NCBI GenBank assembly: GCA_011772645.1
Contig: WVZE01000036.1
Location: 48,726-112,725 of the forward strand
DNA length: 64,000 bases
Origin: Candidatus Aenigmatarchaeota archaeon
Lineage (GTDB): Archaea > Aenigmatarchaeota > Aenigmatarchaeia > QMZP01 > QMZT01
Reading direction: 5' to 3'
The notes below the pieces were generated by a model that was given only the letters and a program-made list of their open reading frames with translations, was not told the origin of the DNA and did not search any database. The translations under genes and the position numbers were made by a program. Numbering within the stretch: position 1 is the first letter of the stretch; every line of letters starts with the position of its first letter. Of the stretch, positions 13,381 through 53,930 are shown in pieces.

Positions 13381-13515
13381 GGGGCTGTGAGGTAGTCTGG
13401 CTATCCTGGCGGGCTCCAGTCTTTCGAAAGAGTGGAGCGATGAGGGTCTTATGAGGATTAAGATCCTGTGATGAAGAGAGACCCGTATACCTGGGTTCGA
13501 ATCCCAGCAGCCCCA
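13381..13515 (+). tRNA. tRNA-Trp (anticodon CCA) with ~61-nt intron at the canonical 37/38 position (13420-13480)
   Basis: Acceptor GGGGCTG/CAGCCCC+A, D-arm AGG..CCT, anticodon stem GCGGG/CCCGT with loop CTCCAG, variable ATAC, T-arm CTGGG-TTCGAAT-CCCAG. Spliced length is 74 nt. The intron contains a UGAUGA box C-like motif. Confidence 0.65.
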
Positions 13516-13550
13516 CTTATTTTTTATTCCAGCCAGGACAAAGAATTAAT

Positions 13551-18461: not shown

Positions 18462-18746
18462 ATGAAATTCCCGAAAACCCTGCGCACCTACTGCCCGAAG
18501 TGCAGGAAGCACACGGAGCACACGGTGAAGCAGTCCAAGAGGAAGGGACGTTCCAAGGCTCACCCCCAGTCCCAGTCGCAGAGGAGGTTCAAGAGGAAGA
18601 TGGAGGGATACGGATCCTTCCCCAGGCCCAATCCCAAGGGCGAGGGAAAGCCCACCAAGAAGGTGGATCTCCGCCTGACGTGCAAGGAGTGCAAGAAGGC
18701 GCATACAAAGAAGGGTTTCAGGGTAAAGAAGTTCGAGCTGGTATGA
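18462..18746 (+). CDS. rpl44e: 50S ribosomal protein L44e (eL42)
   Basis: [22 protein letters not shown]...CKECKK C4 zinc ribbon. A TATA-like CCTATATAAC lies about 22 nt upstream. Confidence 0.85.
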
Positions 18747-18917
18747 TGGATATTAACGATAAAGGAAGGTCCTACGTCCTGGAGATGGCCGCCAGATCCT
18801 ACTGTGAAGGTTTAACGGAAAGGTTTGACCAGGGATACAAAAGGCTGCTATTCCTCGCCAGGGCGTTCAACTAGAACTGTGACTCCCGGGCCGGAAATAT
18901 ACAGTCCGGGTGTTCAC

Positions 18918-20042
18918 ATGACCAAAAACAGAGGTTCGGTAGAGAATAAGTTGAAGGAGCTTCTTTCTGACAGGACTATAACCGATAGGAACAGGGACCA
19001 TATACTGAAATTCAAGGACAATTGCGTTGCTGAGGTCATGGGCAATAACAGGATTCACAAGTATCTGACCTACCTTCCCAAAATCGCTAGAATTCTTAAA
19101 AAAGACTTTAAAAAAGCTGAAAAGGAGGATATCCAGAGGGTTCTGGCTGAACTGGAGAAGAACCAGAGCTATTCTGCGTGGACGAAGTACGATTTCAGGG
19201 TGATGATAAAGCGATTCTACAAGTGGCTTGAGGGAGACGATGAAGTGTATCCGAAGAAGGTCAGATGGATCAAATCCTGGGCAGTTGTTAAAAAGGCTAG
19301 GGGGGTCCTTCCTGATGAGCTTCTCACTGTAGAGGAAATCAAGGCAATGATAGAGAATTGTTATAACATTCGCGACAAAGCGATAATCTCTGTTCTTTAC
19401 GAAAGCGGATTTCGAGTGAGTGAATTCCTTGGAATGAGGATTAAGCATGTGGATTTCTCTGGGGACCTTGCTCATATCACTTTTGAAATAGAAGGAGCTA
19501 AAACAGGAATGAGAAAGATACCTCTGATAAACTCCATTCCCTATCTGGCCAATTGGATTGGAAATCACCCAAGCCAGAATGATCCGAACTCATATGTGTG
19601 GATATCAAATGGCCACGTAAATCACAATCAACCAATGTGCTATGGCAATCTGATGGATTTGCTGAGAAAGATAGCTGTGAGGGCAGGCGTGAAGAAGAGG
19701 GTTAATCCGCACAATTTCAGGCATTCCAAGGCCACAGAGATGGCAAAATCCCTTACAGAATACCAGCTATGTCTTTACTTTGGCTGGAAGAAATCAGCAA
19801 CAGCATCCACATATGTTCATCTCGCAGGAAGGGATCTGGACATAGCAATAAGGGAACTGGCTGGATTATCAACTCCAGAGCAGAAAAAGAACGAGCTCGA
19901 GCCAATCAAATGCCCACGCTGCGAGAAGACAAACGAGCCCACAGCAAAGATGTGCAACAGATGCGGATTGATTCTGAGCGCAAAGAACGCCATGCAAACA
20001 ATGTTCTGGCGAGGAAAAGAACTGAACACTCCTCCCTCTTAG
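18918..20042 (+). mobile_element. tyrosine recombinase/integrase (phage-integrase family) with C-terminal zinc ribbon
   Basis: Catalytic motifs ...HNFRHSKATEM... and ...ASTYVHL (Tyr), a SAM-like N-domain, and a C-terminal CPRC...CNRC. It is inserted between rpl44e and rps27e. Confidence 0.75.
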
Positions 20043-20118
20043 TTTATCCCCCCTTTCCGCCCGAGCGAGTTTTACTATACAAATCGTTTTTATTGATAAC
20101 TATCTGAAATTTAATTGG

Positions 20119-20790
20119 ATGGTTTTTATGAAGAGAAGTAAAAATAATAAAATAAAGACAAAAACAGGAAAAACTCCCATCATGTACGAATCAGATTTTA
20201 TTACCAAAAAGGAGAAGAGGACTCTAATAATACAGACTGCCACTGCCGTTATTCTGGCCGTAACTGCTGTAGTCTACGCTGGGGGTGTTTTTGTCCAATA
20301 TAATACTTTTCAGAACCAGTTGGACCTAGATAATCCACATTTTGTAATATCTTTTGATCCAAATCAGGCGTGTAGGGACAGTATAAATGAACTTGATAGT
20401 CCATGGATTAGAATATCTTTGAAGAATTACGGTAAGTATCCAGCAAGTATAAAATTCAGTCCTTTGGTAGAGGGCATATCATTTGATGGGGGTGAAGAGG
20501 TAAGTTATGTAATCACTGAGGATTCAATAATGGAGAATTCAATACGACTGAGACCCAATCTTTCTACACAGAATTTCACAGTATCTTTAATGTACGATTG
20601 TACACCAATTCCAGTATCATATTATAGGTTCCCATTTTGGACTACTCGTGATGCACCCTGTAATTTCTGGACTGATTGTGGAATAAGATGCGAATATGAA
20701 AGAAAATATGGATATAACCATTGGGAAAGAGTAGGGGATATAGAAGGTTTAAGATGGTATAATGGAAAATGCAAGAGACTAGTTTTATAA
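20119..20790 (+). CDS. hypothetical membrane-anchored secreted protein (AT-rich, integrase-adjacent cargo)
   Basis: 223-aa ORF with a TM helix after a basic N-terminus. Its codon usage differs from the backbone. Confidence 0.4.
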   Translation: MVFMKRSKNNKIKTKTGKTPIMYESDFITKKEKRTLIIQTATAVILAVTAVVYAGGVFVQYNTFQNQLDLDNPHFVISFDPNQACRDSINELDSPWIRISLKNYGKYPASIKFSPLVEGISFDGGEEVSYVITEDSIMENSIRLRPNLSTQNFTVSLMYDCTPIPVSYYRFPFWTTRDAPCNFWTDCGIRCEYERKYGYNHWERVGDIEGLRWYNGKCKRLVL

Positions 20791-20845
20791 AGCCATTTGA
20801 CAAATTCATACAAGGCGCTGTGTTGGCATTTCCTTGGCGGCCAGG
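20785..20845 (+). repeat. direct repeat copy 1 (TTATAAAGCCATTTGACAAATTCATACAAGGCGCT...TCCTTGGCGGCCAG) containing a TATA-like TTTATAAA
   Basis: A 35-bp exact match to 22058-22093, plus a shared TCCTTGGCGGCCAG about 10 bp downstream. Confidence 0.7.
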
Positions 20846-20902
20846 GGTTTACGTATATTATATTGAATATTAACTTATTAACAATTAAAACAATAATTAT
20901 TT

Positions 20903-21973
20903 ATGGCCAAACATAAAAAAGCCATAATCATAATTCTTTTATTAATTGTTTTTATAGCCCTACTGTATCTTTCTATACCACTATTTATTTGCCCTATTGT
21001 TGATGGGGTTTCTTGCAATAATATTACTTTAACAGGAATCTGGAATTCTGATAATGATTATGTCATTGAAGTCAAGAATCTCAATGGCTCCTCTTTAGAT
21101 AATGATAATCCAATTTTTGAAAATGAGGCATATTGTCAAATATTTTTAAAAGAGAATGACCTGTCTTTTGATGAATTTAAAAACTACACGAGAAAAATCT
21201 CAGGTATGGTCCGCACCTACCAAGAAGTGAAAGAGACAGTTTCTAATGTATCAATACCCTATAGAATACAATTAGAATTTAACCAATGTTATCCGTTCGG
21301 GGGATTTTATTGTCCAGGATACGAAGTAAATATTGATACCCCGCCTTGTTTTTTCTATCAGATTGATAAGGAAACAGACCCAAATATTGCGTTGCAAGTA
21401 TGTGAAAAGACCACACTCGATGTCGAAGGTAGTAGCAAATGTTATAGAATAGTAGCCCTAAAATTTGCTGATGTAGATACAGATATGGCTGTTGCGTTAT
21501 GTGATAGAACAGCTATTTTCGGTATTTATGAGAAACTTAAATGTTATAAAAAAATTGTAATAAAGTTAGCTGAGAAAGACATTAGTAAAGCTATAGATAT
21601 ATGTGAAATTGAAGGCATGTATTGTCGTGGAGACGTTATAGAACACTATCAGAATACGTATAACATTACTGGAGAGAAGTTGGTTAAAGAATGTCTATAT
21701 TATGAATTAGGGGATAAAGTAACCGAGCGACTGTGTGCACACAACAGCATCTATCTTTATGGTTGGCAGGGACATCATGATTTAGTTTACATGTACGGCA
21801 ATGGTTATTCTGAGAAAGCAAAGATTCTTTGTGATAAAATGCTGCTTTTTTATGGTAGTGATGAATTATGCCTTAAAAAACGAGAAGGAACCATTAAAGA
21901 AATTAATAGGCCAGGAAGCGCTTTAAACCAATTCGTTCTGCAACACCCCGATGGTTTAGGAGAACCTCAATAG
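20903..21973 (+). CDS. hypothetical secreted cysteine-rich protein (AT-rich cargo gene flanked by the direct repeats)
   Basis: 356-aa ORF with a signal peptide and many Cys. It is bracketed by the two repeat copies. Confidence 0.4.
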   Translation: MAKHKKAIIIILLLIVFIALLYLSIPLFICPIVDGVSCNNITLTGIWNSDNDYVIEVKNLNGSSLDNDNPIFENEAYCQIFLKENDLSFDEFKNYTRKISGMVRTYQEVKETVSNVSIPYRIQLEFNQCYPFGGFYCPGYEVNIDTPPCFFYQIDKETDPNIALQVCEKTTLDVEGSSKCYRIVALKFADVDTDMAVALCDRTAIFGIYEKLKCYKKIVIKLAEKDISKAIDICEIEGMYCRGDVIEHYQNTYNITGEKLVKECLYYELGDKVTERLCAHNSIYLYGWQGHHDLVYMYGNGYSEKAKILCDKMLLFYGSDELCLKKREGTIKEINRPGSALNQFVLQHPDGLGEPQ

Positions 21974-22057
21974 TTAATTTAAAAGTAAAACATACTTGCA
22001 TAATATCGATTTAGAATGAGACTCGTGAGACAACCAAATTGTGCAGAACCAAGTTAA

Positions 22058-22125
22058 TTTATAAAGCCATTTGACAAATTCATACAAGGCGCTAGGCTGC
22101 GATATCCTTGGCGGCCAGAGCGGGC
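22058..22125 (+). repeat. direct repeat copy 2 (junction to native GC-rich sequence)
   Basis: Same 35-bp core and TCCTTGGCGGCCAG tail as 20785-20845. GC-rich backbone sequence follows. Confidence 0.7.
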
Positions 22126-22267
22126 GGCCTGGACATTGAAAATCTAAGAAAGAACGACGTTATACTCCTGTTGATGGGACACGGCCTGGAATGGGGAGAC
22201 ATGGACCTCAGAAGTCTTTCCAGAGATGTTAAGTGGGATATCAGAAAATTGAAAGAAAAAAAGGTGA

Positions 22268-22436
22268 TATGATGGCTTCGAAATTTTTAAGGGTGAAGTG
22301 CAGGAAATGCAAGAACGAGCAGGTTGTTTTTGAGAGACCGTCCTCCAGCATAAAATGCCTGGTCTGCGAAGAGGTTCTTGCAGAGCCCACGGGCGGGAAG
22401 GCGAAGATAAAAACCGACGTTATATCCAAGGTTTAG
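22268..22436 (+). CDS. rps27e: 30S ribosomal protein S27e
   Basis: MMASKFLRVKCRKCKNEQVVFERPSSSIKCLVCEEVLAEPTGGKAKI is the C4 zinc-finger S27e. Confidence 0.85.
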
Positions 22437-22444
22437 GTGTTATT

Positions 22445-23191
22445 TTGGAGAAAAAGATTCCTAAGAAGTGGGAGCTGGTCGTGTGCAGGATCAAGAAGAT
22501 CAATCCCCACTCCGTCCTGGCATACCTTGTGGAATACGAGAGGATGGGATTAATACACGTTTCCGAGGTCGCATCGAGGTGGGTGCGAGACATACGGGAG
22601 TTCGTGAAGGAGAACCAGTACGTTGTCTGCAGGGTCATGGAGGCGAACACTGAGCATATCTCCCTTTCCCTCAAGAGGGTCTACAAGGAGGACAGGACAA
22701 AGAAGCTGAACGAATTCAAGAGGGAGAGGAGATCGGAAAAGCTCATCGAGATGTGCGGCAGGCTGCTGAAGAAGAGCGCGGAGGAGGTCAAGAAGGAGAT
22801 AGTCCCCGTCCTGGTGGAGGAGTTCGGCTCTCTCACGAAAACGTTCGAGATGGCCCTAAGGAAGCCGGATCTCCTGAAAAGGAAAGACATCCCGGTCAAA
22901 TGGAGAGAAGCGATAATGGATATCGCCAAGAAGAACTACGCTGAGAAGACGTTCGCCGTAAAGGGCGAGCTGAGACTGATCACGAGCAGGCCCGACGGGA
23001 TCGATCTCATAAAGAAGGCTTTACTGAAGGCCAAGAGCCAGGGCCTGGAAGTCCAGTACGTGTCAGCCCCCAAGTACGTCCTGATCGGCAAGGGCAAGAA
23101 CTACAAGGAAGTGGAGAGCAAGGTCAGGGAGATCGGCGAGGGGATAGCCAAGGGCTTCGAGGGCGAAGCCAGTTTTGAGCTGGAGAAATAA
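22445..23191 (+). CDS. eif2a: translation initiation factor 2 alpha subunit (aIF2-alpha)
   Basis: S1 domain (...LVVCRIKKINPHSVLAYLVEYE...GLIHVSEV...) plus the helical and C-terminal alpha-beta domain. A TTG start at 22445 is likely. Follows S27e as in the conserved archaeal L44e-S27e-aIF2a operon. Confidence 0.8.
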   Translation: MEKKIPKKWELVVCRIKKINPHSVLAYLVEYERMGLIHVSEVASRWVRDIREFVKENQYVVCRVMEANTEHISLSLKRVYKEDRTKKLNEFKRERRSEKLIEMCGRLLKKSAEEVKKEIVPVLVEEFGSLTKTFEMALRKPDLLKRKDIPVKWREAIMDIAKKNYAEKTFAVKGELRLITSRPDGIDLIKKALLKAKSQGLEVQYVSAPKYVLIGKGKNYKEVESKVREIGEGIAKGFEGEASFELEK

Positions 23192-23209
23192 ACATAAAAT
23201 AATAAGAAT

Positions 23210-23908
23210 TTACTTGGTTATTTTAATGGAAACATTTTTTGGTTTTTTGGGCTTCCATTTGTATCTCTTGAAAAAGGGGAATCCTTCTCTTAATTCTATC
23301 CCTATTCCCATTTCCCTTAATGTATTCGTTTCTTCTTTGCTCAGCTGCGTCAGGTAAACCCTGTCGGTTGTCACTGTACTTCCCTTTCCGGAAATGTATT
23401 CGGCTGTTCTGGCTGTATTCTGCATGCCGTCCAAATTCAGAAGTTTCGGTACGAGTTCACTGACAGGAACTTCCTTCGTAAATATGTACAGGTATTTTCT
23501 TTTCTTCCCAATTCTGTTATTACTAAGCTTCTTTCTTCTCGTTCTCCAGGGTATTTTCTTGCCGTCAACTTCAACGTAACTTCCCATGTCAGTTACCCTC
23601 CATTTCTTACTATTAAGTCCGAGATCTGGTATATCCAGCATGTTGGAAGCATGCTCTTCGATTTTCGTTCCTTCATATTTCCTTTCCAAAATGTCAATCC
23701 TGGAACCACTCAATCTCGCATTTTTGAGGGTTTTTCCCTTCCTTTTGAAAGCAAGTTGTTTATAAGACTCGCCTTTCTTGATCTCACCGTGAGGTTCAAA
23801 TCCCATGTTCAAGATATCACTCACCAAACCCTTAGGTATACCCTCTTGGTTCGTGATCTGATAAACAGCTTCTGAATTCCTGTAAATCCTTGAAACGTAT
23901 TTTACCAT
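23210..23908 (-). CDS. hypothetical basic protein (AT-rich islet)
   Basis: 232-aa ORF, K/R-rich, with no recognisable motif. Confidence 0.35.
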   Translation of the reverse strand: MVKYVSRIYRNSEAVYQITNQEGIPKGLVSDILNMGFEPHGEIKKGESYKQLAFKRKGKTLKNARLSGSRIDILERKYEGTKIEEHASNMLDIPDLGLNSKKWRVTDMGSYVEVDGKKIPWRTRRKKLSNNRIGKKRKYLYIFTKEVPVSELVPKLLNLDGMQNTARTAEYISGKGSTVTTDRVYLTQLSKEETNTLREMGIGIELREGFPFFKRYKWKPKKPKNVSIKITK

Positions 23909-23918
23909 TCAATCACCT

Positions 23919-24293
23919 CTATTTGGAATATCCTTCGGGCAATACCATTCCGTCCGGTTTGCCTGTTTCAGGATCGACCATGTCGAAAAGCTTAATCTCC
24001 TCTCCCGTATCGAATTGATGCATTTTCTTTCCACCATTCACCTTTTCGAGCATGTCCTGATGGACACCCCATGCAAGCCCGCTGTGCTTTATTGGTTCAT
24101 GCATGTAGTTATTCCAGGCAACGCCTGATGTACACTCAACTGCCTGTATTTCCGAACCATTATAGGCTTTCACAGCATTGGCATAATTGTTGTATTCAAC
24201 CAGTCCGAGGCCTCCTGCCGCTCCTATGGCTAGCGCAAAGAACGCCAGGTGATCGGACGTCTTTCTCGGTAATCTTATCTTGTATGTGGTCAT
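23919..24293 (-). CDS. hypothetical small secreted/membrane protein
   Basis: 124-aa ORF with an N-terminal hydrophobic segment (LAFFALAIGAAGGLGL). Confidence 0.35.
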   Translation of the reverse strand: MTTYKIRLPRKTSDHLAFFALAIGAAGGLGLVEYNNYANAVKAYNGSEIQAVECTSGVAWNNYMHEPIKHSGLAWGVHQDMLEKVNGGKKMHQFDTGEEIKLFDMVDPETGKPDGMVLPEGYSK

Positions 24294-24385
24294 CCTAACC
24301 CTCCTTTATAAATTTTATCACTTTTTAATAGTTAATTATTACATATTTATTGATTTGGGGGTATTTAAAGCTTTCGTTTGCCTCT

Positions 24386-34996: not shown

Positions 34997-35372
34997 CCAT
35001 ATTCTTCACCTCCTTTCAGTTTGAAGCAGTTTGTCTGCTTCTTTCGCTCTTGAGGGCCAGGACCGGGATTTGCACCCGGTTCGGAGGATCCACAATCTTC
35101 CGTGCTACTACATACACCATCCTGGCCGTTGCTGAAAACCAGAACTACGAAATTCCTCTTCAGATCAAAAACAAGTTCGATCTCTACACCTTCCTCTAGA
35201 CCGAAATTCTTCCTGATCTCAGAAGGGATCGAAATCCTTCCCTTGGAATCTATCTTTATCTTCTTCGAAATTAACCCCTCACTTTCCAGAAAACCAGAAA
35301 AAGCAAGTTTGGAATCCGGGCTAAGAAATTCTTTCCTTCTACGCGTTATGAACCGAATCGCCCGTTTTCCTC
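34993..35372 (-). pseudogene. AbrB/SpoVT(MazE)-like swapped-hairpin DNA-binding ORF lacking a canonical in-frame start (probable homopolymer frameshift)
   Basis: The minus-strand frame encodes ...KIDSKGRISIPSEIRKNFGLEEGVEIELVFD.... The only ATG is in the +1 frame (MRKTGDSVHNA*), across an A4/T4 run near 35362-35366. The stop overlaps the NTase gene start. Confidence 0.4.
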
Positions 35373-42097: not shown

Positions 42098-42250
42098 ATG
42101 AAATATTTACTGAAAAACTTAAGAGGAAGTAAAGTTGCTCTTTACGGACTTGGTCTGGTGGCAGGAGGCGTAGTTTTTAAAATAGCACAGAAAAATCTTA
42201 AAAAATATCCTGTAAATCCGAAGAAGGCAAGAAAGAATGGCGCCTACTAG
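42098..42250 (+). CDS. small membrane protein (paralog pair member)
   Basis: MKYLLKNLRGSKVALYGLGLVAGGVVF. Upstream, GATTTTTAAAACTTACT is conserved with the previous gene. Confidence 0.3.
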   Translation: MKYLLKNLRGSKVALYGLGLVAGGVVFKIAQKNLKKYPVNPKKARKNGAY

Positions 42251-45200
42251 TAATATTTATTCTCTATCCTTGCGAATTTCAGGTAGATCAGGGCAGCGAG
42301 TATCAGGAGGAATACAACCGCGATCGGGGAGAGCCCGGGGAATTCAGGGACGAAGACCGTGGTCACCCATACGCTGTCCTTGTCCTTAAGATCCGAGTCC
42401 ACGAAAGAGCTTGCGGTCACTGTCACATTATATCTAAGCTGTTCGGTGTACAAAATCCTGACTTTAATTTTTCTCTCTTCCTGGGGGTTCAGGTCTATAT
42501 CAGCCTCTGGCTGGTTGTTTATCGCGAATATGGCATTTGAAGGTTCCAGCTTCAAATGAACCGTGTCAAACTTCAGCTGTATGTTCCTCACAGCAACGTC
42601 CAGGGTGTTAAACTTCCCTATCATGGGCATCACGGATTCCGCCTCGAAATTCGCCAGGGGATGCTCGTACATTGTAAGTGAGTAGTAACCTGATGGCGGG
42701 TTCCTCTCCGTTTCTGATGTGTAGGAGTTCAACGTGTAGGAATAGTAATCGATTTTTGTATCGTTTGGGTAAGGTCCCAGCGTTACGACACACATGTTGT
42801 CAAGCAAACACGTCAATGTATCCCATGTCCCGGGTTCGAATCTTGGGTGATAGACTCTGTAGTTAATGGTCATGTTGAGCAGATCCCTGGTCATGTTCAT
42901 GAGTGTTATCGAAACATTCCTGTCCGCACCCGTCTTCCCTCTGTCCCTTATAATGTTGCCGAACTGGTCTATCACGTAAAGTTCCGCCAGCCCGGGGATA
43001 AAGATCGTGGTGTTGGTGTCGTATGTTGTCTTGACCTCCCAGTTGCCTGCGTTGTCCTTGGCGAGCGAGCGGAAGTAGAATCTGTAATTGTTTATCCCGC
43101 CCAGGGGGCTTCCTGCCTCTTCATATGCGTTGAATAATGTGAAAGTCTCTGTCGTACAACTAAACAGCTCCTGCCATGAAGTTAAATTCACGGTATCATT
43201 GTACCGGAATTCTATCTTGTAGCAGTCAATGCCGCTTCCGCTGTCGCTCCCTCCCCAGTAGAGATCGAAAGCGTTTGACTGGGTATAGAAGGGGAGAGTG
43301 GAAACAAGGGAAACAGGCGGTGTGGTGTCGTTCGTGTACTGCCAGCCCGTGTTTATGTATCCTGTCCCTCTCCCGGCCTCGTCGTAAAGGAATGCGTACA
43401 CGCTGTAACTCTTCTGACTGCTTCCTGTGTCTACGGTCCATATCTCGTCAACGCTCGCTCCCGTACAGCTGCCCGAGCAGGAAACCGATTGGATTGTCAG
43501 GTAATTATAGTTCCACATGTTGTCCGTGATGATTCCCGTATCAACATCAACGCTGGATTTTATCTCGTTACCGCTCGCGCATATTTCACCCCAGTTGCAT
43601 CCGCAGCTTTCCGGTGCGCAGCCGCTTGTGAATGTGATGTATTGTCTTGAGGGGGTTGAGACCGAATCAGTGTGCTGTATTCTATGGGTTGTTGTCCCTG
43701 AATTGACCCAGCAGATTTGGTTGGACGTGTCCTCGTAATCACACCCTGAAACCGAGTAGGAAACAAAGGTGGGGTTGGTCTTGTCGATTAATACCTGGGT
43801 TGATTGCGTGCTTTCCTGGTTGCCCGCGTTGTCCGTTGAGCGGTATCTCACGTAGTTGGTTCCTTCGTCCGAAACAATGAAGGAAGAAGAATACGGTATG
43901 GAGGGCGAGCAAGTGTCTGTGGTGTCCACGCAGTACGTTGTGTCAGCGCATCCCGAGCCTCCCGGGTCCGAGCAGGTCAGGGTGACCTGGACGTTCGTTG
44001 TGTACCAGTTGTTCCAGCCCATGGTTCCCGAAAGACTGATGGAAGTGGAGGGAGGCGTCGACTCCAGAATTATGGAATCGCTGTCCTGAATCACGCTGAG
44101 CAGATTGTTCCTAACTTCGTAATAGACTGTTTTTGTTCCGTCGCCCGCTGTCAAAGTCCAGGCTTTCGTTGGCGCACATGCCTCCCAGGTGGTCCAGCTA
44201 CCTCCCTCGTTTCTGTATCTGCAGTCCTTAATGCCCGGACCGACTGGGTCTGAATAGGCCAAATTAAGTGTTACGGAGTTCGAATTCGTATAGGTATCGT
44301 CATTGTTTATAAATATTGATGCCGTCATGCCTACCACTCCTATCAGGTACTGCCAGCCCGTGTCTATGTATCCGGTTTCTCTCCCGGCCTCGTCGTAGAG
44401 GAATGCGTATACGTTATAACTCTTCTGGTTGTTTCCTGTATTTACGGTCCATATCTCGTCAACGCTCGCTCCCGTACAGATGCCCGAGCAGGAAACCGAT
44501 TGGATTGTCAGGTAATCATCGTTCCACATGTGGCTTGTCGTGACTCCCGTATCGACATCAACGCTGGATTTTATCTCGTTTCCTGAGGCGCAGAGCTCGA
44601 TGTTGTTACATCCGCAGTTGTTTGGTGCGCAGCCGCTTGCGAATGCGATGTATTGTCTTGAGGGGGTTGAGACCGAATCAGTGTGCTGTATCTCGTGGGT
44701 TGTTATTGTCCCCGGATTGACCCAGCATGTTTGGGTGGTTGCGTTTTCGTAGTCGCATCCTGAAACCGAGTAGGAAACAAAGGTGGGGTTGGTCTTGTCG
44801 ATTAATACCTGGGTTGATTTCGTGCTTTCCTGGTTGCCCGCGTTGTCCGTTGAGCGGTATCTCACGTAGTTGGTTCCCTCAGGGGAAACGGCGAATGTGG
44901 ATGAATATGATATGGAGGGGGAGCATGTGTTTGTTGAATCTATGCAGTATCTTGTGAAATCGCAGTCAGAACCTCCTGAATCCGAGCAGGTAAGGGTGAC
45001 CTGGACGTCCGTTGTGTACCAGTTGTTCCAGCCCATGGTACCCGAAAGGCTGATGGAAGTGGAGGGGTCTGTTGTGTCCACCATAAGACGGGAGGAAACA
45101 TCCGTGTCGTAGTTCCCAGCCGAATCCTCGACCCACAAACACAGCCAGTCATTACGGTTGGTGTTTACCGTTATAACCGAACTTGTTGTTGAAAATGTGT

Positions 45201-48200
45201 AGCTTGATTTTGAACCGGAACACGTCCCGTCTGAGTCGAAGTAATACCACTTGGTTGATATGCAGCCGGAGCCTCCTGAATCCGAGCAGGAGAGTGTTAT
45301 ATCGTCTGAATTCACCCATGTTGTCGATTCGCCGGTTATGCTTGCAGTTGGATTTGTCTTGTCCACCCTGAATTCGACAGGGCTTGAAAATCCCGTGTTG
45401 CCCACGTTGTCCCTCGCCGCTGCGCACACCCACCTGTGGCTGGAGATGGTCTGGGGGGAGGCTAGGGTGTAGGAAGAGTAGGTGGAGGGGCAGCTCCCCG
45501 GGTTGGATGCGTACGTTACCAATCTGTAAGAACCTGCGTTGCAGCCGGAGCCTCCCGGGTCAGAGCAGGAAACGCTCGCCGTGGCGTCTGTGTTCTGCCA
45601 GGAAGCGGGAGCTCCCGTTACGGAGACCGAAGGGGAGGTTTTGTCCACTGTGAACGAATGGTCCGTTCCGTCGAATCTCAGAGACCATCCTCCGTTGGGC
45701 TCGAAGTCTGACCAGAGCCCGCAATAATCGACTGTCCAAGTCCCTCCCGGATCGCCCGATTGTATGGTGTAGGAGAAGGTCACACTAGTTCCCCAGTTGT
45801 TGAAGTATATTATGGAACCGCCCGGCTTTGCGAGTCTGCATTCGGAAATTATGGTGAATCCTGATGGGCTTCTTGAAACGCCTGAGAGGGAGATCTGGAT
45901 GGTGTCCCCTACTGAGTAATAGCCTGAGGGATAGGTGTATGAACTCCAAGTTCCGGTTACCTGCGTTGAGGTTCCTCCTTTCGTGCAGGAGGTGTAGCTG
46001 TTCGAACACACGCGATTGGAGTCGCATTTGTAGGAACCCGTCCTCCCGCAGGTGGAGTCTACCCAGATTCTCTGGTTACCAACACCCGGGCTGGGGGCGG
46101 CGCAGTCCAAAAGACATCCTCCCTGAGCGTAACAGTTCTCGCTGGAGTCGCAGATACCTGGTAGACCTATGCACGGGTCTCCGCATATCAGGCCTTGGCA
46201 TGCCCCTGTTTCCAAACGGAAGTTATTGCTCTGTTTTGTGGACTCCTGGTTGCCCACGCTGTCTCTCGAGTAGAAGCATACAACCTTGTTGCAGATCTGG
46301 CCTGCCGGGCATGTCACGCTTCCCGACGTTCCCGTGGTGAATCCTGTTGTCCCGCAGGACCCTCCCTGGTTGATAACCCTGTAATAAGTGGATGAACATC
46401 CCGAACCTCCTGAATCAGAGCAGGTCAGGGTGAAGGAAACGGAAGTTGTGGAATAACTCCCGCCGTTGGGTGATATGGATGTGGTCGGACCTGATACATC
46501 CCTCCATTCGCCGCCAACACACTGGGAACCCGCCATTCCCGGACGAGCAGCTCCTTCGCTGTAACATGCACTTTGCCAAACACAATCATTCGCGTTGTTG
46601 CAGCATGCATCATCACTCGAACTGGAAGTGCAGGCGTATCCGTCGCACTGCCTTGTTCTCCTGTATTCGTTCGAATCATCCCCGCAGCAGGTTGTTGCGT
46701 CCACTTCTCCTCCTATGTTCCAGCGGTTTGAACCGGCGATAGCTCCGCATTGCGTGCTTCCCGCGTCTCCTCCCTGCCACGTCCCTGCGTTGCAGTAGTT
46801 CCTGCTGGGGATGCTTCCTCTTGTTGAGGTTGATGAATAACAGGTGGAGTAGTAGACGCAGTCGTTGTTCGCGTTACAGCAGGCGTCGTCCGAGGATGAG
46901 GAGGAATAGGTCGAATCTGTTCCAGCGACTCTCGTTCTCCTGTTTTCACCCGAATCGTCGCCGCAACATGCGGTCGCTGCTACTTCGCCGCCAATTGCCC
47001 AGAATCCACCGCCGCAACCGCATAAATATGAATTGTAATCACCATTGGTCCGAAAAACTGCATCATAACATGCAGTGTAACCTCCGGCACACCAATCCTC
47101 TCCGGCATCGTCTCCGCAACAATCTCCCACTGAATCATCCCAGCAATTGCTTTCTCCTCCAGAACAGGTTCCCTGTGTCCCGCTCACTTCGCACTCGCAG
47201 GCACTCTGAACATTGTCAGGTTCCCTGGCAGGACCAGACCTATCACAACCATTTGCATTAATACCATCACAATAACCTTGAGTCTGATATCCGAATCCAC
47301 CGTTATTGTAAGCATTATCGGCTAGGTCATTACTTGTACATGCCCAAGCGGTGTTACATAGGTAACCAGTTCCCCTTATTGTATAAGGATGGCTGCTTGT
47401 ATCACAGCATACCCCACTGGAGCATTCATCATTAGCCGCCCATATTCCGTTTGATTGACATATAATGGCACCGCTTAAAGCAGTTTGACCACTTGAATAA
47501 CATACACCATTATAAACGCAATCACTACTTGAACTGCAGCAAGCATCGTCTGAACTGCTACTGCTACATCCGGAATCACATTGTCTTGTCCTTCTATTCT
47601 CTCCGGAGTCGTCACCGCAGCAGGTTGTTGCTGCCACTTCTCCTCCTATGTTCCAGCGGTTTGAACCGGCGATAGCTCCGCATTGCGTGCTTCCCGCGTC
47701 TCCTCCCTGCCACGTCCCTGCGTTGCAGTAGTTCCTGCTGGGGATGCTTCCCCTTGTTGAGGTTGATGAATAACAGGTGGAGTAGTAGACGCAGTCGCTG
47801 CTCGCATCACAGCAGGCGTCGTCCGAACTTGAGGAGGAATAGGTCGAATCTGTTCCCGCGACTCTTGTCCTCCTGTATTCGCCCGAATCGTCACCACAAC
47901 ATGTGGTCGCGGCGACTTCTCCTCCTATGTTCCACCTTCCCGTTGCCTCGCATGCATCGCAGTAAGCTTGACCTGCATCAGAATCATACCACGTACCGCT
48001 GCCGCAGTAAGCATCGTCTGAACGGCATGCCCCCGAAGAATAACAGGTGTTTGAATAGACGCAGTCACCGCCCGCATTACAACAGGCGTCGTCCGAACTT
48101 GAGGAGGAACACCAGGAATTGCACACCCTTGTTCTCCTGTATTCGCCCGAATCATCGCCGCAGCAGACACTCCCGGCGACCTCGCCTCCTATGTTCCAGC

Positions 48201-49992
48201 GGTTTGAACCGGCGATAGCTCCGCATTGCGTGCTTCCCGCGTCTCCACCCTGCCACGTCCCTGCATTGCAGTAAGCCTTGTTGGGGACTGCCGGGGGGGA
48301 GGTTCCTCCGGATGATGTGCACGCATCATTGTATGTGCAATCTGTGTTTGCATTACAGCAGGTTGTAATTCCGTCGTTGTAACCTGAAGGGGCGTCGGTT
48401 CCGCCAGTTTCTGTCCTTCTGTACTCGCCCGAATCGTCACCGCAGCAGTTTGTCGCTGCTACCTCACCGCCGATTGCCCAATTACCACCACCACAACTGC
48501 ATAAATATGAATTGTAATCACCATTGGTCCGAAAAACTGCATCATAACATGCAGTGTAACCTCCGGCACACCAATCCTCTCCGGAGTCGTCGCCGCAACA
48601 ATCTCCTACTGACTCATCCCAGCAATTGCTTTCCCCTCCAGAACAGGTTCCCTGGGTTCCGCTCGCTTCACATTCGCAGGCGCTCTGGTAATTGTCAGGC
48701 TCTCTGGCAACGCCCGAGACGTCACAACTCCCGCCGCCGTCACAGTATCCCTGGGTCTCGTACCCGAACCCGCCATTGTTATAAGCGTTATTGGTTTGCT
48801 CGGCGCTCGTACACGCCCAAGCGGTGTTGCATGGTGTGTTCGCCTGGATGCCGCAGGTGCTTGTCAGAACATCTCCTGCTGGAGCAGTTACAGGATACTG
48901 CTCATAATAACTTGTAGCTGCCGTGTCGCAAACGCCGCTCCCGTCGCATTCAGAGTAACGAATATATCCTGAACAACTTCCGGCAGTACAAAAATAATTG
49001 GTATTATCATCACACGAGAGTATTTCTGAAGTTGCATCAACGCTGCTTGCAGAATAACAGGCTTTGTAAGCGGGCGTGTTGTAAATGGCGCGTGCGCATT
49101 CGCCTAATCCGTCACAAACGCCCGTTCCCCCATCAATTGCGCACTGGGATGCAATGCAGGGACCTCCCCCGAAACATCTGTTGCCCGGGTCTGTCCCGGC
49201 CGGCGCCGGGTCGCAGTCTGGGTAGGCGTCGTAACATCCGTAACAAAGCGCGCAGTTGTCTGCCCTGCCATCGGAATAAACCCCACAGGCCCCGCCCGTG
49301 CAGGTGCCTGTCAGGCAGTCAGTTGTGCTGCACTCGCTGCGAGGATCGGTTCCGTCAGGTACGTTTTCGCATAATACATCAGTATCATAACACCCTTGAC
49401 AGATCCCGCAGTTAGCCTTCCTTCCGTCAGAATAGGCAGCACATCCTCCACCAGCAGCACAACTACCTGTTCTGCATTGCGATGTATCACAATCATTATT
49501 TGGGTCTGTTCCTGCATTTGCATCCTGACAACCACCAGCCCCATTACAAACCCTGCAGGTGGCAGGGCAATCATCGTTTGGATCTGTTCCTGCAGGAATA
49601 AAACTCCCGCTGCTGTCGCAGCAGGTAGTTCCCGGGGTGCATGCTGTACCGCAGATGCCATTCACACGGGTCCCGGAACAACATCTGCAGTCAGTAGGAG
49701 CGGAATTACCATCCAAAATACAACACACGCCCCTCCCGCTACATGTTTTGCAAAATGAGGCACCAGGACAAGTTGCGGCTTCTTCGTAGCAATTACTGGT
49801 ATCCTCCCCGGGTGGACAGAATCTTGTTGATGCACGCCGGCAAACTATTAAAATATCGCCAGTGGAGCAATAATTTGAGCCGCAATTAGCCGCACTAGTA
49901 CAACCATCCAGACAAGCAGCGCTAACCCCGTAACTCAAAACATTTAAAAGGATAACCGAATAAAACACCGCGATGACACACTTTGCCTTCAT
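42247..49992 (-). CDS. giant (2581 aa) secreted cysteine-rich surface protein with Ig-like repeats and C-terminal EFPGL-TM-basic sorting-signal-like tail
   Basis: Signal peptide. The N-terminal ~1000 aa are Cys-rich with at least 6 CCGDDSGEYRRTR repeat units. It has a conserved ~170-aa CGLWSDF module and two near-identical ~250-aa repeats. Ig-like units carry Y.STDNAGN.E. The C-terminus reads VPEFPGLSPIAVVFLLILAALIYLKFARIENKYY. Confidence 0.7.
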   Translation of the reverse strand: MKAKCVIAVFYSVILLNVLSYGVSAACLDGCTSAANCGSNYCSTGDILIVCRRASTRFCPPGEDTSNCYEEAATCPGASFCKTCSGRGVCCILDGNSAPTDCRCCSGTRVNGICGTACTPGTTCCDSSGSFIPAGTDPNDDCPATCRVCNGAGGCQDANAGTDPNNDCDTSQCRTGSCAAGGGCAAYSDGRKANCGICQGCYDTDVLCENVPDGTDPRSECSTTDCLTGTCTGGACGVYSDGRADNCALCYGCYDAYPDCDPAPAGTDPGNRCFGGGPCIASQCAIDGGTGVCDGLGECARAIYNTPAYKACYSASSVDATSEILSCDDNTNYFCTAGSCSGYIRYSECDGSGVCDTAATSYYEQYPVTAPAGDVLTSTCGIQANTPCNTAWACTSAEQTNNAYNNGGFGYETQGYCDGGGSCDVSGVAREPDNYQSACECEASGTQGTCSGGESNCWDESVGDCCGDDSGEDWCAGGYTACYDAVFRTNGDYNSYLCSCGGGNWAIGGEVAATNCCGDDSGEYRRTETGGTDAPSGYNDGITTCCNANTDCTYNDACTSSGGTSPPAVPNKAYCNAGTWQGGDAGSTQCGAIAGSNRWNIGGEVAGSVCCGDDSGEYRRTRVCNSWCSSSSSDDACCNAGGDCVYSNTCYSSGACRSDDAYCGSGTWYDSDAGQAYCDACEATGRWNIGGEVAATTCCGDDSGEYRRTRVAGTDSTYSSSSSDDACCDASSDCVYYSTCYSSTSTRGSIPSRNYCNAGTWQGGDAGSTQCGAIAGSNRWNIGGEVAATTCCGDDSGENRRTRQCDSGCSSSSSDDACCSSSSDCVYNGVCYSSGQTALSGAIICQSNGIWAANDECSSGVCCDTSSHPYTIRGTGYLCNTAWACTSNDLADNAYNNGGFGYQTQGYCDGINANGCDRSGPAREPDNVQSACECEVSGTQGTCSGGESNCWDDSVGDCCGDDAGEDWCAGGYTACYDAVFRTNGDYNSYLCGCGGGFWAIGGEVAATACCGDDSGENRRTRVAGTDSTYSSSSSDDACCNANNDCVYYSTCYSSTSTRGSIPSRNYCNAGTWQGGDAGSTQCGAIAGSNRWNIGGEVDATTCCGDDSNEYRRTRQCDGYACTSSSSDDACCNNANDCVWQSACYSEGAARPGMAGSQCVGGEWRDVSGPTTSISPNGGSYSTTSVSFTLTCSDSGGSGCSSTYYRVINQGGSCGTTGFTTGTSGSVTCPAGQICNKVVCFYSRDSVGNQESTKQSNNFRLETGACQGLICGDPCIGLPGICDSSENCYAQGGCLLDCAAPSPGVGNQRIWVDSTCGRTGSYKCDSNRVCSNSYTSCTKGGTSTQVTGTWSSYTYPSGYYSVGDTIQISLSGVSRSPSGFTIISECRLAKPGGSIIYFNNWGTSVTFSYTIQSGDPGGTWTVDYCGLWSDFEPNGGWSLRFDGTDHSFTVDKTSPSVSVTGAPASWQNTDATASVSCSDPGGSGCNAGSYRLVTYASNPGSCPSTYSSYTLASPQTISSHRWVCAAARDNVGNTGFSSPVEFRVDKTNPTASITGESTTWVNSDDITLSCSDSGGSGCISTKWYYFDSDGTCSGSKSSYTFSTTSSVITVNTNRNDWLCLWVEDSAGNYDTDVSSRLMVDTTDPSTSISLSGTMGWNNWYTTDVQVTLTCSDSGGSDCDFTRYCIDSTNTCSPSISYSSTFAVSPEGTNYVRYRSTDNAGNQESTKSTQVLIDKTNPTFVSYSVSGCDYENATTQTCWVNPGTITTHEIQHTDSVSTPSRQYIAFASGCAPNNCGCNNIELCASGNEIKSSVDVDTGVTTSHMWNDDYLTIQSVSCSGICTGASVDEIWTVNTGNNQKSYNVYAFLYDEAGRETGYIDTGWQYLIGVVGMTASIFINNDDTYTNSNSVTLNLAYSDPVGPGIKDCRYRNEGGSWTTWEACAPTKAWTLTAGDGTKTVYYEVRNNLLSVIQDSDSIILESTPPSTSISLSGTMGWNNWYTTNVQVTLTCSDPGGSGCADTTYCVDTTDTCSPSIPYSSSFIVSDEGTNYVRYRSTDNAGNQESTQSTQVLIDKTNPTFVSYSVSGCDYEDTSNQICWVNSGTTTHRIQHTDSVSTPSRQYITFTSGCAPESCGCNWGEICASGNEIKSSVDVDTGIITDNMWNYNYLTIQSVSCSGSCTGASVDEIWTVDTGSSQKSYSVYAFLYDEAGRGTGYINTGWQYTNDTTPPVSLVSTLPFYTQSNAFDLYWGGSDSGSGIDCYKIEFRYNDTVNLTSWQELFSCTTETFTLFNAYEEAGSPLGGINNYRFYFRSLAKDNAGNWEVKTTYDTNTTIFIPGLAELYVIDQFGNIIRDRGKTGADRNVSITLMNMTRDLLNMTINYRVYHPRFEPGTWDTLTCLLDNMCVVTLGPYPNDTKIDYYSYTLNSYTSETERNPPSGYYSLTMYEHPLANFEAESVMPMIGKFNTLDVAVRNIQLKFDTVHLKLEPSNAIFAINNQPEADIDLNPQEERKIKVRILYTEQLRYNVTVTASSFVDSDLKDKDSVWVTTVFVPEFPGLSPIAVVFLLILAALIYLKFARIENKYY

Positions 49993-50019
49993 TAATTAAT
50001 AATTATTGATTTCTATTAA

Positions 50020-53000: not shown

Positions 53001-53901
53001 CCTGGGTCCCGGAAAGCGTGATGGTGGTGATCGGAGGATCTGTATCTTCCGGGCAAAGGACCGGGTCAGTCTCGCACCCAGGCAAGCCGGCACTGCAGGT
53101 CTCGGTGAAGGCACAGGTCTGATCGGTAGCCCAGAGACCATATACCGTGCTTCCCGTACACTGAGCCGAATTCCCTGAACAATACTGGTTGTTAGTCTGC
53201 CTTTCCAGCGTGGCTCCGCACCCGTTAGAATCCCCTCCCACGCACCTGTATTCATTCCAAGTGTCGCAAACCTCGGATGTGGATTCATAGCAACCGGAAA
53301 GCGTTCCTGTTGTGCAGCAGGGACCTGACCAACATTGAGAGGTGATGCAGACTCCTCCGCAGCATGACCCACAACATGAAGTCGAAGCCGAACATGTGCA
53401 TCCTATGTTAGGAGGTTTTCTGCAAACAAGCCCGCACGCAGCCCAGCAAGTATCGGTGCCGCAGCAACCCGTCTCATCCATCAAACACCCGCCATCTCCA
53501 TGGGTATGTGACGCCGTTCCCTGCCAGCTGGGCCCGGAAGCCTGTATGCCAGCGCAATCGCATTCGTTCCTTCCCTCCCAGCTGCACGTCCAGATGCTGC
53601 ACCTGGTTGCGCTCGGGCAATCCCTCCGGGCGAGAGTGTTACCGCAAAATATCCCTCCTTCGCCACACCATGCTCCGCACGTATCCGTTCCCTGGTGGTC
53701 CCAGTCACAGTCACACCAGGTACAGCCGTTGCTAATGCAGTCATCCTTCGAATCTTCGTAATCTCCGCAGTTTTTGTCCGCGGGTCCCCTGCATGTAAAG
53801 ACCCTGTGTATCGTGGCAGAAGCCGAATAAGCTGTTGTGAATATAAAAAGGAGGATCACCACCGATATAACAAAAAATTTGTAAATGTCTTTTTTCATCA
53901 A
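50020..53901 (-). CDS. giant (1293 aa) paralogous cysteine-rich surface protein with DFPGL-TM-basic C-terminal tail
   Basis: Signal peptide and a Cys-rich N-domain. There are three internal copies of the GAPASWQNTDATA...SNPGSCPSDYASYTL.SPQTISSH.WVC unit. A ~200-aa block is about 85-90% identical to the 2581-aa neighbour. The C-terminus reads ATPADFPGLNWPAIVFLLLLSVLIYVKLVKIKD. Confidence 0.7.
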   Translation of the reverse strand: MMKKDIYKFFVISVVILLFIFTTAYSASATIHRVFTCRGPADKNCGDYEDSKDDCISNGCTWCDCDWDHQGTDTCGAWCGEGGIFCGNTLARRDCPSATRCSIWTCSWEGRNECDCAGIQASGPSWQGTASHTHGDGGCLMDETGCCGTDTCWAACGLVCRKPPNIGCTCSASTSCCGSCCGGVCITSQCWSGPCCTTGTLSGCYESTSEVCDTWNEYRCVGGDSNGCGATLERQTNNQYCSGNSAQCTGSTVYGLWATDQTCAFTETCSAGLPGCETDPVLCPEDTDPPITTITLSGTQGLSGWYVTNVDVTLTCSDGQGGSGCSATRYCVDTSNTCSPSTVYSSQFTISSEGTRYVRYYSTDNAGNQESTRSTRVRIDKTSPSVSVTGAPASWQNTDATASVSCSDSGGSGCDAGTYRLRTYASNPGSCPSDYASYTLSSPQTISSHVWVCAAARDNAGNTGVSNPVEFRIDKINPVADITGESTVWVTSDTVNLVCTDTGDSGCLSTRWYYFDSDGTCSSSKSSYYLSTTSNTLTITGVHNDWLCLWVEDSAGNYDTDVSSRLMVDDGTPTTPVVTDDGDYTSSLTTLHATWTQSTSSSGIAEYQYAIGTARYPNSGWNSEVGWTSRGLLREVTRSGLSLSNGETYYFNVRARSNSGLWSDVGSSDGITANVCYQQPCGTPCPGGICNGEDECYSGGGCFLDCSVPSTGPNAERRWVDSNCGRTGSYKCGPRHVCSNSYTSCTMGGIPRQVTGDWTSYVPPSGTYYAGQTINIRLNGVSNSPSGFTILSECRLVKPSGSSIYFNNWGTSVTFPYTIQDADPLGTWTVDYCGLWSDFESNTGWVLEFDGTDRTFTVDEIQVTVSVTGAPASWQNTDATANVTCVSNTGPCDPSTYMLLTYDSNPGSCPSDYASYTLPSPQTISSHRWVCAAARDNMGNEGFSSPVEFKVDKIPPIVSVDDVAPLWQNTDATASVSCSDPGGSGCNAGSYRLITYDSNPGSCPSDYASYTLPSPQTISSHVWVCGAAKDRAENEGFSSPVEFKVDKVSPTSRVRLLSTYMAQKSFNLSWNGTDDESGLDCYIIQYKYRPQSEPESPVMNINFSDGECTKQTSTIFDAEQAAGSNPDGYTFYFRSLARDNAGNQETKTGFDTYTTIFLTMVKFAVDEKFHMTIGRGGIIKILVRNSQLIADTIRLSLNMQEAMFAETGNRTLDLQMNPQEYREVIARIYPRSLGNFNLTVNANSLTDPQLADSDWLEIKIATPADFPGLNWPAIVFLLLLSVLIYVKLVKIKD

Positions 53902-53930
53902 TTATATAATTGGTTATGGGTAATTATTAG

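Follow-up and report, generated by a model that had tools for sequence, protein, structure and literature searches.

A stretch of mobile DNA of 3.5 kb lies within the L44e-S27e-aIF2alpha ribosomal-protein operon of an uncultured Aenigmarchaeota archaeon. It is read here as a small integrated element, most likely left by the decay of two related ones in tandem, with boxes near their right ends that would act as promoters. A probability of about 0.5 is given to this reading.

The window, that is, the whole stretch of DNA analysed, is 64,000 nucleotides long, and the insert occupies positions 18741-22261. Comparison with the seven closest relatives (aIF2alpha 75-89% identical) showed an empty site in all of them, with L44e and S27e joined by spacers of 11-52 nt. 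The flanks are colinear with those of the relatives, and homology in blastn breaks at 18740|22262. The last native gene ahead of the insert is L44e (18462-18746, plus strand; Pfam PF00935, E 5.6e-25), which matches the relatives up to 18740, and homology resumes at 22262 in the S27e Shine-Dalgarno sequence GGTGAT, the edges of the insert being exactly the L44e stop and the S27e ribosome-binding site. The native genes that follow on the same strand, S27e (22272-22436) and aIF2alpha (22445-23191), both identified with Pfam, are now separated from the L44e promoter by the insertion. A sequence-only reading of the window had described an integrase-bearing insertion at this place, composed of a tyrosine recombinase and two AT-rich open reading frames; the empty site in the relatives bears out the insertion, and Pfam assignments and base composition (GC 0.35 and 0.34 for the cargo genes against 0.45-0.49 in the flanks) confirm the content. 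None of the relatives carries these genes between L44e and S27e, with or without an integrase. The 52-nt spacer of one relative (L023) was considered as a scar of the element and rejected, as it has no similarity to it. Across other Aenigmarchaeota the L44e-S27e spacer is a variable gene slot, in which ORFs of five or more unrelated families occur. The left junction with the integrase was reproduced by the Logan assembly of another run, ERR2564001 (contig L002), as was the whole segment between the two repeats described below (contig L118, 1298 nt, an exact substring corresponding to 20790-22087).

The insert encodes an intact tyrosine integrase of 374 aa (18918-20042, plus strand) with a C-terminal CxxC...CxxC zinc ribbon, which scored 94.9 bits against PF00589 (cut-off 27.1; E 6e-27). 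Alignment to XerA (4a8e) placed the catalytic R, K, HxxR, W, and Y in the stretches GFRVSE, GAKTG, HNFRHS, GW, and TYVH, and these positions, together with the four cysteines of the zinc ribbon, are invariant across 20 family members. The protein is full length and colinear with homologues of 373-434 aa. The search for relatives gave 291, from Aenigmarchaeota, Thermoplasmatota, and Nanoarchaeota, relatives were also found at the ends of tailed proviruses in IMG/VR, and the identity was 51% to P0004 and 40% to the integrase of the pleolipovirus GacPV1 (Geoglobus acetivorans pleomorphic virus 1, BK065156.1). Three other assignments were ruled out: a XerA chromosome-dimer resolvase (NF040815, 120.5 bits against a cut-off of 220), from which the protein also differs in its extra zinc ribbon and in the lack of the gene at this position in all relatives; an SSV-type (partitioned) integrase, the reading frame being uninterrupted; and an IntI-type integrase (TIGR02249, 54 bits against 265; NF011946, 22.7 against 435).

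Integrases of this family start 58-63 nt downstream of tRNA 3' ends, for example 60-63 nt after tRNA-Asp (L015 and L116) and tRNA-Arg (L018). In locus L116 the 18-nt 3' end of tRNA-Asp is present in two exact copies 10,541 nt apart, and a second family integrase begins 61 nt past the second copy; this locus holds two elements of the family in tandem. Att repeats of L014, L015, and L018 were absent from 6-kb flanks and were first found once the flank was extended, and the IMG/VR proviruses begin trimmed at the integrase start and therefore hold no att information from upstream. The family normally targets tRNA genes and is known to form tandems. The integrase described here is of the non-partitioned (pNOB8) type, with the gene intact after integration and a candidate att core outside it, 52 nt upstream of the ATG.

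That candidate attL core, the tRNA-3'-end-like 16-mer ATTCCTCGCCAGGGCG at 18850-18865 (plus strand), falls, in a MAFFT alignment, at the same place as the tRNA 3' ends that precede homologous integrases. It agrees with the tRNA-Asp core of L116 at 12 of 16 positions, a better match than any other within the 171 nt that precede the integrase gene (p 0.005). It is recognisable solely through the related integrase loci, in which a tRNA gene has its 3' end at the same position. The left boundary had been called unclear in the sequence-only reading, for want of a matching repeat on the L44e side; a search there likewise found no copy, and 18850-18865 is now a candidate for the boundary. Another left core, TGGCCGCCAGA at 18793 (10/11 against the right copy), was discarded, as it is out of register with the cores of the related loci and places the reconstructed gene X described below out of register with its counterpart in L007.

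Two fragments of a small gene, termed X and missed in the sequence-only reading, flank the insert. The right fragment, X-C, is a 54-codon ORF (22108-22272, plus strand) whose stop overlaps the S27e start region. It is homologous to a 92-aa protein whose gene occupies the L44e-S27e interval of L007 and L045 (score 74 against 27 +/- 5 for shuffled sequences; BLASTP E 8e-7). Significant homology is limited to this fragment, and the match is an operon-slot gene in a distant relative. The left one, X-N, is a 43-codon ORF (18747-18874, plus strand) and a putative N-terminal fragment; its start overlaps the L44e stop (GGTATGATGG), and L007 has the same coupling and the same MM..R(S/T)Y(V/L)..M start, but the homology of X-N alone is not significant (p 0.1-0.24). 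In the reconstructed X, the spacing from LL to KNDVI is 14 residues, as in L007. Both fragments are host-like in GC (0.49 for X-N). An initial reconstruction of 68 aa matched only its own 54-aa fragment and was dropped, and homology of X to ORFs of 170-180 aa in the slot of L043, L053, and L068 was unsupported. Gene X is wholly missing in all seven closest relatives, so its presence here requires either several independent losses among them or re-acquisition.

A direct repeat of 61 nt occurs at 20784-20844 and 22058-22118 (plus strand) and is identical at 55 of 61 positions (90%), being composed of 36 identical nt, a 10-nt block in which 6 positions differ, and a further 15 identical nt. The earlier claim of an exact 35-bp repeat that brackets the last cargo gene and whose second copy adjoins native-type sequence holds: the 35-mer occurs exactly twice in the 64 kb against none in 100 shuffles, the copies flank the gene orf356, and copy 2 adjoins X-C. 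No further full or partial copy was found within the window, and a 24-mer taken from the repeat had no exact match in viral or metagenome collections. Copy 1 consists of a TTTATAAA box, a 28-nt arm, the variable 10-mer GTGTTGGCAT, and the core-like TTCCTTGGCGGCCAG; copy 2 has the same box, arm, and core-like 15-mer, with the variable 10-mer AGGCTGCGAT. The concentration of the six substitutions in one 10-nt block, with none in the remaining 51 nt (p 2e-4), points to constraint on the two flanking blocks or to their mosaic origin. Neither copy folds better than shuffled sequence on either strand (z -0.08 to +1.29), and with no Rfam match at E <= 1 a structured RNA or known RNA family was ruled out. 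The repeat arm may be a relic of a tRNA-Asp 3' half, with which it shares CAAGGCGCT and to which copy 2 can be aligned (p 0.004), but the T-arm misfits and ungapped matches are limited to 9-10 of 16 positions. The arm does not significantly resemble the L116 element at its right end (p 0.2-0.28).

Comparison of the two ends of the insert gave a gapped stretch of 25-29 nt that is about 80% similar (p 0.016-0.13). Specifically, the 10-mer and core of copy 2 aligned to the attL flank at 18842-18866 with a score of 19, for which p was 0.016 with 60-nt windows and 0.13 with windows of 180 nt. No long exact repeat joins the ends; the longest common word is 8 nt, which is at chance level. Indels distinguish the core-like 15-mer of the repeats, TCCTTGGCGGCCAG, from the attL 16-mer, and the 15-mer is the less tRNA-like of the two. 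A core-like motif defined post hoc had three matches, all within the insert, against 0.13 expected, a weak signal that includes a possible degenerate site, TCCGCCCGAGCG, at 20056-20067 (plus strand), 14 nt past the integrase stop codon.

The TATA-type element reported in the repeats is present in both copies as the consensus TTTATAAA. This 8-mer occurs 11 times against 1.3 expected (8-fold enriched) and also precedes the SRP54 start codon by 31 nt; comparable boxes are located 19-50 nt ahead of other first genes. The repeat as a whole is not a genome-wide promoter motif as far as the window goes: it has no further 61-nt copy there, and only the 8-mer is generic. The box is probably an outward-firing promoter, which from its position would read from copy 1 into orf356 and from copy 2 into S27e-aIF2alpha. 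A second TATA-like box, TTTAAAAG at about 21980, is likewise located upstream of S27e.

Two cargo genes accompany the integrase on the plus strand, each encoding a protein with one strongly hydrophobic N-proximal segment. The product of orf223 (20119-20790; gene callers start at 20182) is a membrane-anchored protein with 6 Cys, hydrophobic from residue 34 to 62. It belongs to no family of Pfam, PHROG, or NCBIfam, and three distant homologues share the TM segment and a CDFW..C..CEY motif. The product of orf356 (20903-21973) is an orphan with 16 Cys and an N-terminal signal or anchor helix; it has no Pfam family and matched only itself among 5.8 billion proteins. It showed no similarity to orf223 or to a pleolipovirus VP4-like protein, and its single-sequence AF2 model was too poor to be used (pLDDT 44, helix 2-29).

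According to the preferred reading, an integrase whose family normally recombines at tRNA 3' ends, its gene then lying about 60 nt downstream, would here have used gene X, a small accessory gene between L44e and S27e, at a site resembling a tRNA 3' end (ATTCCTCGCCAGGGCG). Module A would consist of the integrase gene and orf223, and module B of orf356 alone, with no integrase. Both modules would end in the 61-nt right-end sequence, the TTTATAAA-box arm followed by the core-like 15-mer, and since each does so, the middle copy would be the junction of modules A and B and the last copy attR. The copy-1 box would then read into orf356, and transcription from the copy-2 box would cross the junction to reach the remnant of X, S27e, and aIF2alpha. 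These right-end sequences are 55/61 identical; the likeness between the left ends of modules B and A extends over only about 10 nt. An att-site duplication and a duplicated promoter had been proposed as alternatives. The two are probably not alternatives, as the repeat looks like a promoter-bearing arm plus a core-like 15-mer present once per module. Tandem arrays and protein-gene targets are known for archaeal elements (PMC8371274, PMC6563490), and integrase-less modules that retain att sites are known in bacteria (PMC5704250).

The leading rival, unlikely but to be taken seriously, is that a single element was inserted and that the repeat is a duplicated promoter with no role in recombination. 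A promoter-bearing segment at the right end of this element would have been duplicated as orf356 came in, for instance through illegitimate or homologous recombination with a different element, whereby orf356 and the downstream operon would have been given the same promoter. Such an origin would suit a repeat that carries a TATA box of the consensus type found in this genome and forms no hairpin or RNA structure, a module B with neither an integrase nor a left end like that of module A, and a weak left att. It accounts poorly for a repeat that runs 25 nt past a typical promoter and whose terminal 15-mer resembles the core-like site upstream of the integrase. The substitutions (0 in 51 nt against 6 in 10 nt) suggest two separately constrained blocks, and tandem arrays are documented in this integrase family.

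It is improbable that X was not the local target and that X-N, the element, and X-C arrived as one block, or that X is itself part of the mobile DNA. The element would have entered X in another lineage, and the region would have been imported by recombination in the conserved flanking genes. The lack of X in all close relatives and the variable content of the slot speak for import, as does the exact placement of the insert edges, both of which carry the 8-nt TATGATGG. This 8-mer is at chance level (p 0.58) and can be put down to ATGA start/stop coupling, and it was also rejected as an att core. Against import, the match to L023, L021, and L006 stays uniform (about 75-90% identity) as far as both breakpoints, no imported tract can be seen in L44e or S27e, and the GC of X-N and X-C is that of the host.

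Quite improbable is an active cassette system, akin to a cis-mobilisable element or to the cassette of an integron, though served by a tRNA-type integrase, in which the orf356 module between two att-like copies would be excised and inserted in trans by the neighbouring enzyme. Direct repeats with perfectly conserved blocks do surround one gene, the adjoining integrase is intact, and up to four core-like sites lie between the three insert genes, the fourth being a post-hoc, gapped match. The 1298-nt Logan contig runs exactly from repeat to repeat, but a break of the assembly graph at the repeat gives the same contig. No sign of circular or excised forms was seen, the repeat was found nowhere else in viral and metagenome collections, orf356 matches only itself, and the insert is not an integron. 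Very improbable is the wider proposal that a DPANN zinc-ribbon integrase of the tRNA type runs a cassette platform in an essential ribosomal operon, capturing and excising integrase-less modules of one gene, all with the same 61-nt att-plus-promoter unit at their end, the terminal unit keeping S27e and aIF2alpha expressed; if true, archaea would have a means of capturing gene cassettes other than the integron. A chimeric joining of strain variants at the repeat is hardly credible, for although the contig is metagenome-assembled and 36-nt exact repeats break assembly graphs, the same gene order is present on two long contigs (65 kb and 115.6 kb) and the ERR2564001 contigs cover the join of L44e to the integrase as well as the whole stretch between the repeats, including the edges of both.

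Mobile elements of DPANN archaea have been poorly described so far, and the present case sets an apparently intact integrase element in an operon of essential translation genes rather than at a tRNA gene. Should the outward promoter be real, the case would show how a host can survive with an element placed ahead of its essential genes, and the arrangement would also make loss of the element difficult. The analysis also identified a large family of zinc-ribbon integrases, common to Aenigmarchaeota, Thermoplasmatota, Nanoarchaeota, and their viruses, in which a constant distance separates the att core from the integrase gene that follows it. Current concepts are unchanged; known behaviour (tRNA-type integrases, secondary sites, and tandem arrays) is extended to a new host group and a new target.

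Among known systems, integrons, including those reported from archaeal MAGs, also combine a tyrosine recombinase with single-gene units that are each followed by a repeat. An integron was ruled out here by the IntI scores (54 bits against 265), the lack of attC hairpin folding, the co-orientation of the integrase with the cargo, and the presence of only two repeat copies. The tandem accretion of Streptococcus ICESt1-type elements and CIMEs (PMC5704250) would be the bacterial counterpart of an integrase-less, att-bounded module beside an integrase module at one target site; the present case differs in its archaeal (DPANN) host, single-gene module, and unconserved left arm. In concept, the supply of a promoter to a displaced gene would resemble outward promoters of insertion sequences and pTN3 (PMC8371274), in which the integrase promoter is used for a tRNA gene and the integrase gene is split on integration, whereas here an essential operon for a ribosomal protein and an initiation factor would be driven from a separate TATA box at the right end. 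With the pNOB8-type archaeal elements and proviruses (the L116 tandem and GacPV1), the element shares the integrase family, an intact integrase gene at the left end, a core-like site 52-63 nt upstream of that gene, and the occurrence of tandem arrays. It departs from them in its target, a small protein-coding gene in a ribosomal-protein operon rather than a tRNA gene, in short and imperfect att cores, in a size of only 3.3 kb with no replication or virion genes, and in a duplicated unit that comprises 61 nt of the right end rather than the core alone. The element is therefore an unusual case of an already known kind of element.

In the window, the L44e gene (18462-18746) is followed by a tyrosine recombinase whose C terminus carries a zinc ribbon (18918-20042), two ORFs without family, orf223 (20119-20790) and orf356 (20903-21973), S27e (22272-22436) and aIF2alpha (22445-23191). 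The gene content described in the sequence-only reading was correct. The cargo genes are poorer in GC (0.34-0.35) than the flanks (0.45-0.49), and each encodes one strongly hydrophobic N-proximal segment. For comparison, 87 related aIF2alpha loci were fetched. The L44e-S27e distance was 11-52 nt in all of the seven closest (L023, L021, L006, L022, L024, L025, and L026; protein identity 75-89%). Using blastn, both sides of the window were colinear with L023, L021, and L006, with a break at 18740 and a resumption at 22262, which is the ribosome-binding site of S27e. The 3.5 kb between L44e and S27e is an insertion, as had been claimed. The gene order was recorded identically on two long contigs, and run ERR2564001 yielded two matching Logan contigs, of which L002 spans the left junction with 10 mismatches over 1430 nt and L118, an exact substring, covers the complete segment between the repeats.

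Among the 56 loci holding both genes, the L44e-S27e gap was at most 60 nt in 39 and 220-542 nt in 13, the longer gaps being filled by small ORFs from five or more unrelated families, one of which carries an FGPV...GWY...RVP motif. Small ORFs were found in the spacers of L043, L046, L047, L053, L055, L065, L068, L078, L080, L082, L092, L007, and L045, and an integrase between the two genes in none of the 56. Because so many unrelated families occur in these gaps, the slot is variable in this phylum; the conserved L44e-S27e operon contains a variable gene slot across Aenigmarchaeota-type loci. The 52-nt gap of the closest relative, L023, holds an inverted repeat, GCGCAGGT...ACCTGCGT (L023 5776-5817), and no similarity was found between this gap and the insert. 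Directly after aIF2alpha, 1 kb from the insert, lies a second variable spot (23192-24313). Its two ORFs (232 and 124 aa), both on the minus strand, belong to no family, and alignment with L023, L021, or L006 fails here but holds on either side.

Two short ORFs mark the edges of the insert. The left one (X-N, 43 codons, 18747-18874) starts on the L44e stop codon, and the right one (X-C, 54 codons, 22108-22272) ends on the S27e start. X-C has a clear homologue in a protein of 92 aa encoded in the L44e-S27e slot of L007 (complete Aenigmarchaeota genome CP070801) and of L045, with a score of 74 versus 27 +/- 5 in shuffles, and the joined sequence matched this protein with a BLASTP E value of 8e-7. 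The homology of X-N alone was not significant (p 0.1-0.24); X-N and L007 have in common an identical GGTATGATGG coupling and an MM..R(S/T)Y..M start. From these similarities, the edge ORFs are read as the two parts of a putative small accessory gene, X, that the insertion interrupted. X is wholly absent from the closest relatives, which counts against this reading.

All catalytic residues of the integrase align with XerA, and the protein scored below the XerA and integron-integrase cut-offs. A total of 291 relatives (E < 1e-10, identity 40-55%) came from Aenigmarchaeota, Thermoplasmatota, and Nanoarchaeota, all with the four-cysteine ribbon. Relatives occur at the ends of tailed proviruses (IMG/VR), and one is encoded by Geoglobus acetivorans pleomorphic virus 1 (40% identity). 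On the cellular contigs inspected, the integrase lay 60-63 nt downstream of a tRNA gene (tRNA-Asp for L015 and L116; for L018, a tRNA-Arg with an intron). In L116, the 18-nt 3' end of tRNA-Asp recurs exactly, 10,541 nt downstream, and a second integrase of the family begins 61 nt past this copy. The L116 repeat and the tRNA-adjacent relatives together indicate that tRNA 3' ends are the att cores of the zinc-ribbon family, whose members also form tandem arrays. The tRNA-Asp at L116 9794-9942 (L015 5794-5942) seems to be interrupted in or close to the T-loop by roughly 75 nt of extra sequence, which looks like a non-canonical intron; the ARAGORN call stops well short of the true 3' end of the gene, ATTCCCGCCCAAGGCG. 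In the window, the default ARAGORN run returned only tRNA-His (35054-35126), and a 136-nt tRNA-Trp(CCA) with an intron (13381-13516) was found only with intron detection. The closest homologue of the integrase (55% identity) is encoded in L014, next to a DUF87/HerA-like gene; 58 nt upstream of its start stands an orphan core-like site, TTTCTCGCCTGGCGCA (about 2568-2584), without a tRNA, and tRNA targets may have been abandoned altogether in this sub-lineage.

A candidate for the left core was located by aligning the regions upstream of integrase genes. The candidate attL core, ATTCCTCGCCAGGGCG (18850-18865), is 52 nt before the integrase ATG; it lines up with the 3' ends of the tRNA genes in L015 and L018 and with the orphan site of L014, and matches the tRNA-Asp core at 12 of 16 positions (p 0.005). 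No tRNA body was found upstream of it. Over its variable 10-mer and final 15-mer, copy 2 of the repeat aligns around the same site (AGGCTGCTAT-TCCT---C-GCCAGGGCG vs AGGCTGCGATATCCTTGGCGGCCAGAGCG) only marginally above chance, and the left and right ends have no exact word longer than 8 nt in common. Joining X at the 18850 site gives a protein in the length register of L007 X. The alignments and this register place the candidate crossover within about 10 nt. The sequence-only reading, an integrase cassette with direct repeats and an unclear left boundary, was supported in part and extended; the insertion and the repeat stand, and the left boundary now has a candidate. A further sequence, TCCGCCCGAGCG (20056-20067), lies 14 nt past the stop codon of the integrase gene and is similar to both the att-core motif and the L116 tRNA-Asp core; if real, core-like sites would bound the integrase gene itself.

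The direct repeat (copy 1, 20784-20844; copy 2, 22058-22118) is 61 nt long; its two copies are identical over the first 36 nt and the last 15 nt and differ at 6 positions of the 10-nt block in between. The window has these two copies and no other, shuffles have none, and a 24-mer from the repeat had no exact match in viral or metagenome collections. All six differences fall in the one block (p 2e-4), so the flanking blocks are under constraint or else share a recent origin. The repeat closes with the core-like 15-mer and opens with the 8-mer TTTATAAA, which occurs 11 times in the window (1.3 expected), one of them 31 nt upstream of where the SRP54 gene starts; other first genes are preceded by similar boxes at 19-50 nt. 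Repeats of another kind, 55-300 nt long and both internal and shared, abound on the minus strand at 42247-58502 in three giant ORFs (2582, 1294, and 1524 aa) that probably encode large repetitive surface proteins.

The reading that most simply accounts for all the repeat observations is that the 61-mer would be the right end of an element, comprising an arm with an outward promoter and half of the att core, present once per module (module A, integrase and orf223; module B, orf356). The order would then be attL at 18850-18865, a module junction at copy 1, and attR at copy 2. Past the core, the similarity of modules A and B stops after about 10 nt (GGCGTTCAAC vs GGGTTTACG), so module B would be either a decayed element minus its integrase or a module captured otherwise. 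The insertion cut S27e and aIF2alpha off from the L44e promoter, and copy 2 is the obvious candidate to replace it; copy 1, judged on sequence, would serve orf356. A tandem remnant with an outward promoter is a plausible mechanism, to which a probability of about 0.5 was assigned.

An integron was rejected, since the IntI signature is absent and the repeat, which neither folds nor matches any RNA family, was ruled out as an attC-like site. Archaeal elements offer precedents both for tandem arrays and for insertion into protein-coding genes (PMC8371274, PMC6563490); an element promoter drives the target gene in pTN3-type elements (PMC8371274), and att-bounded modules without an integrase are known from bacteria as cis-mobilisable elements (PMC5704250). 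By these precedents the locus belongs to a known kind of element, although it differs from known archaeal elements in lacking replication and virion genes, in its unusually small size, and in its ribosomal-operon target.
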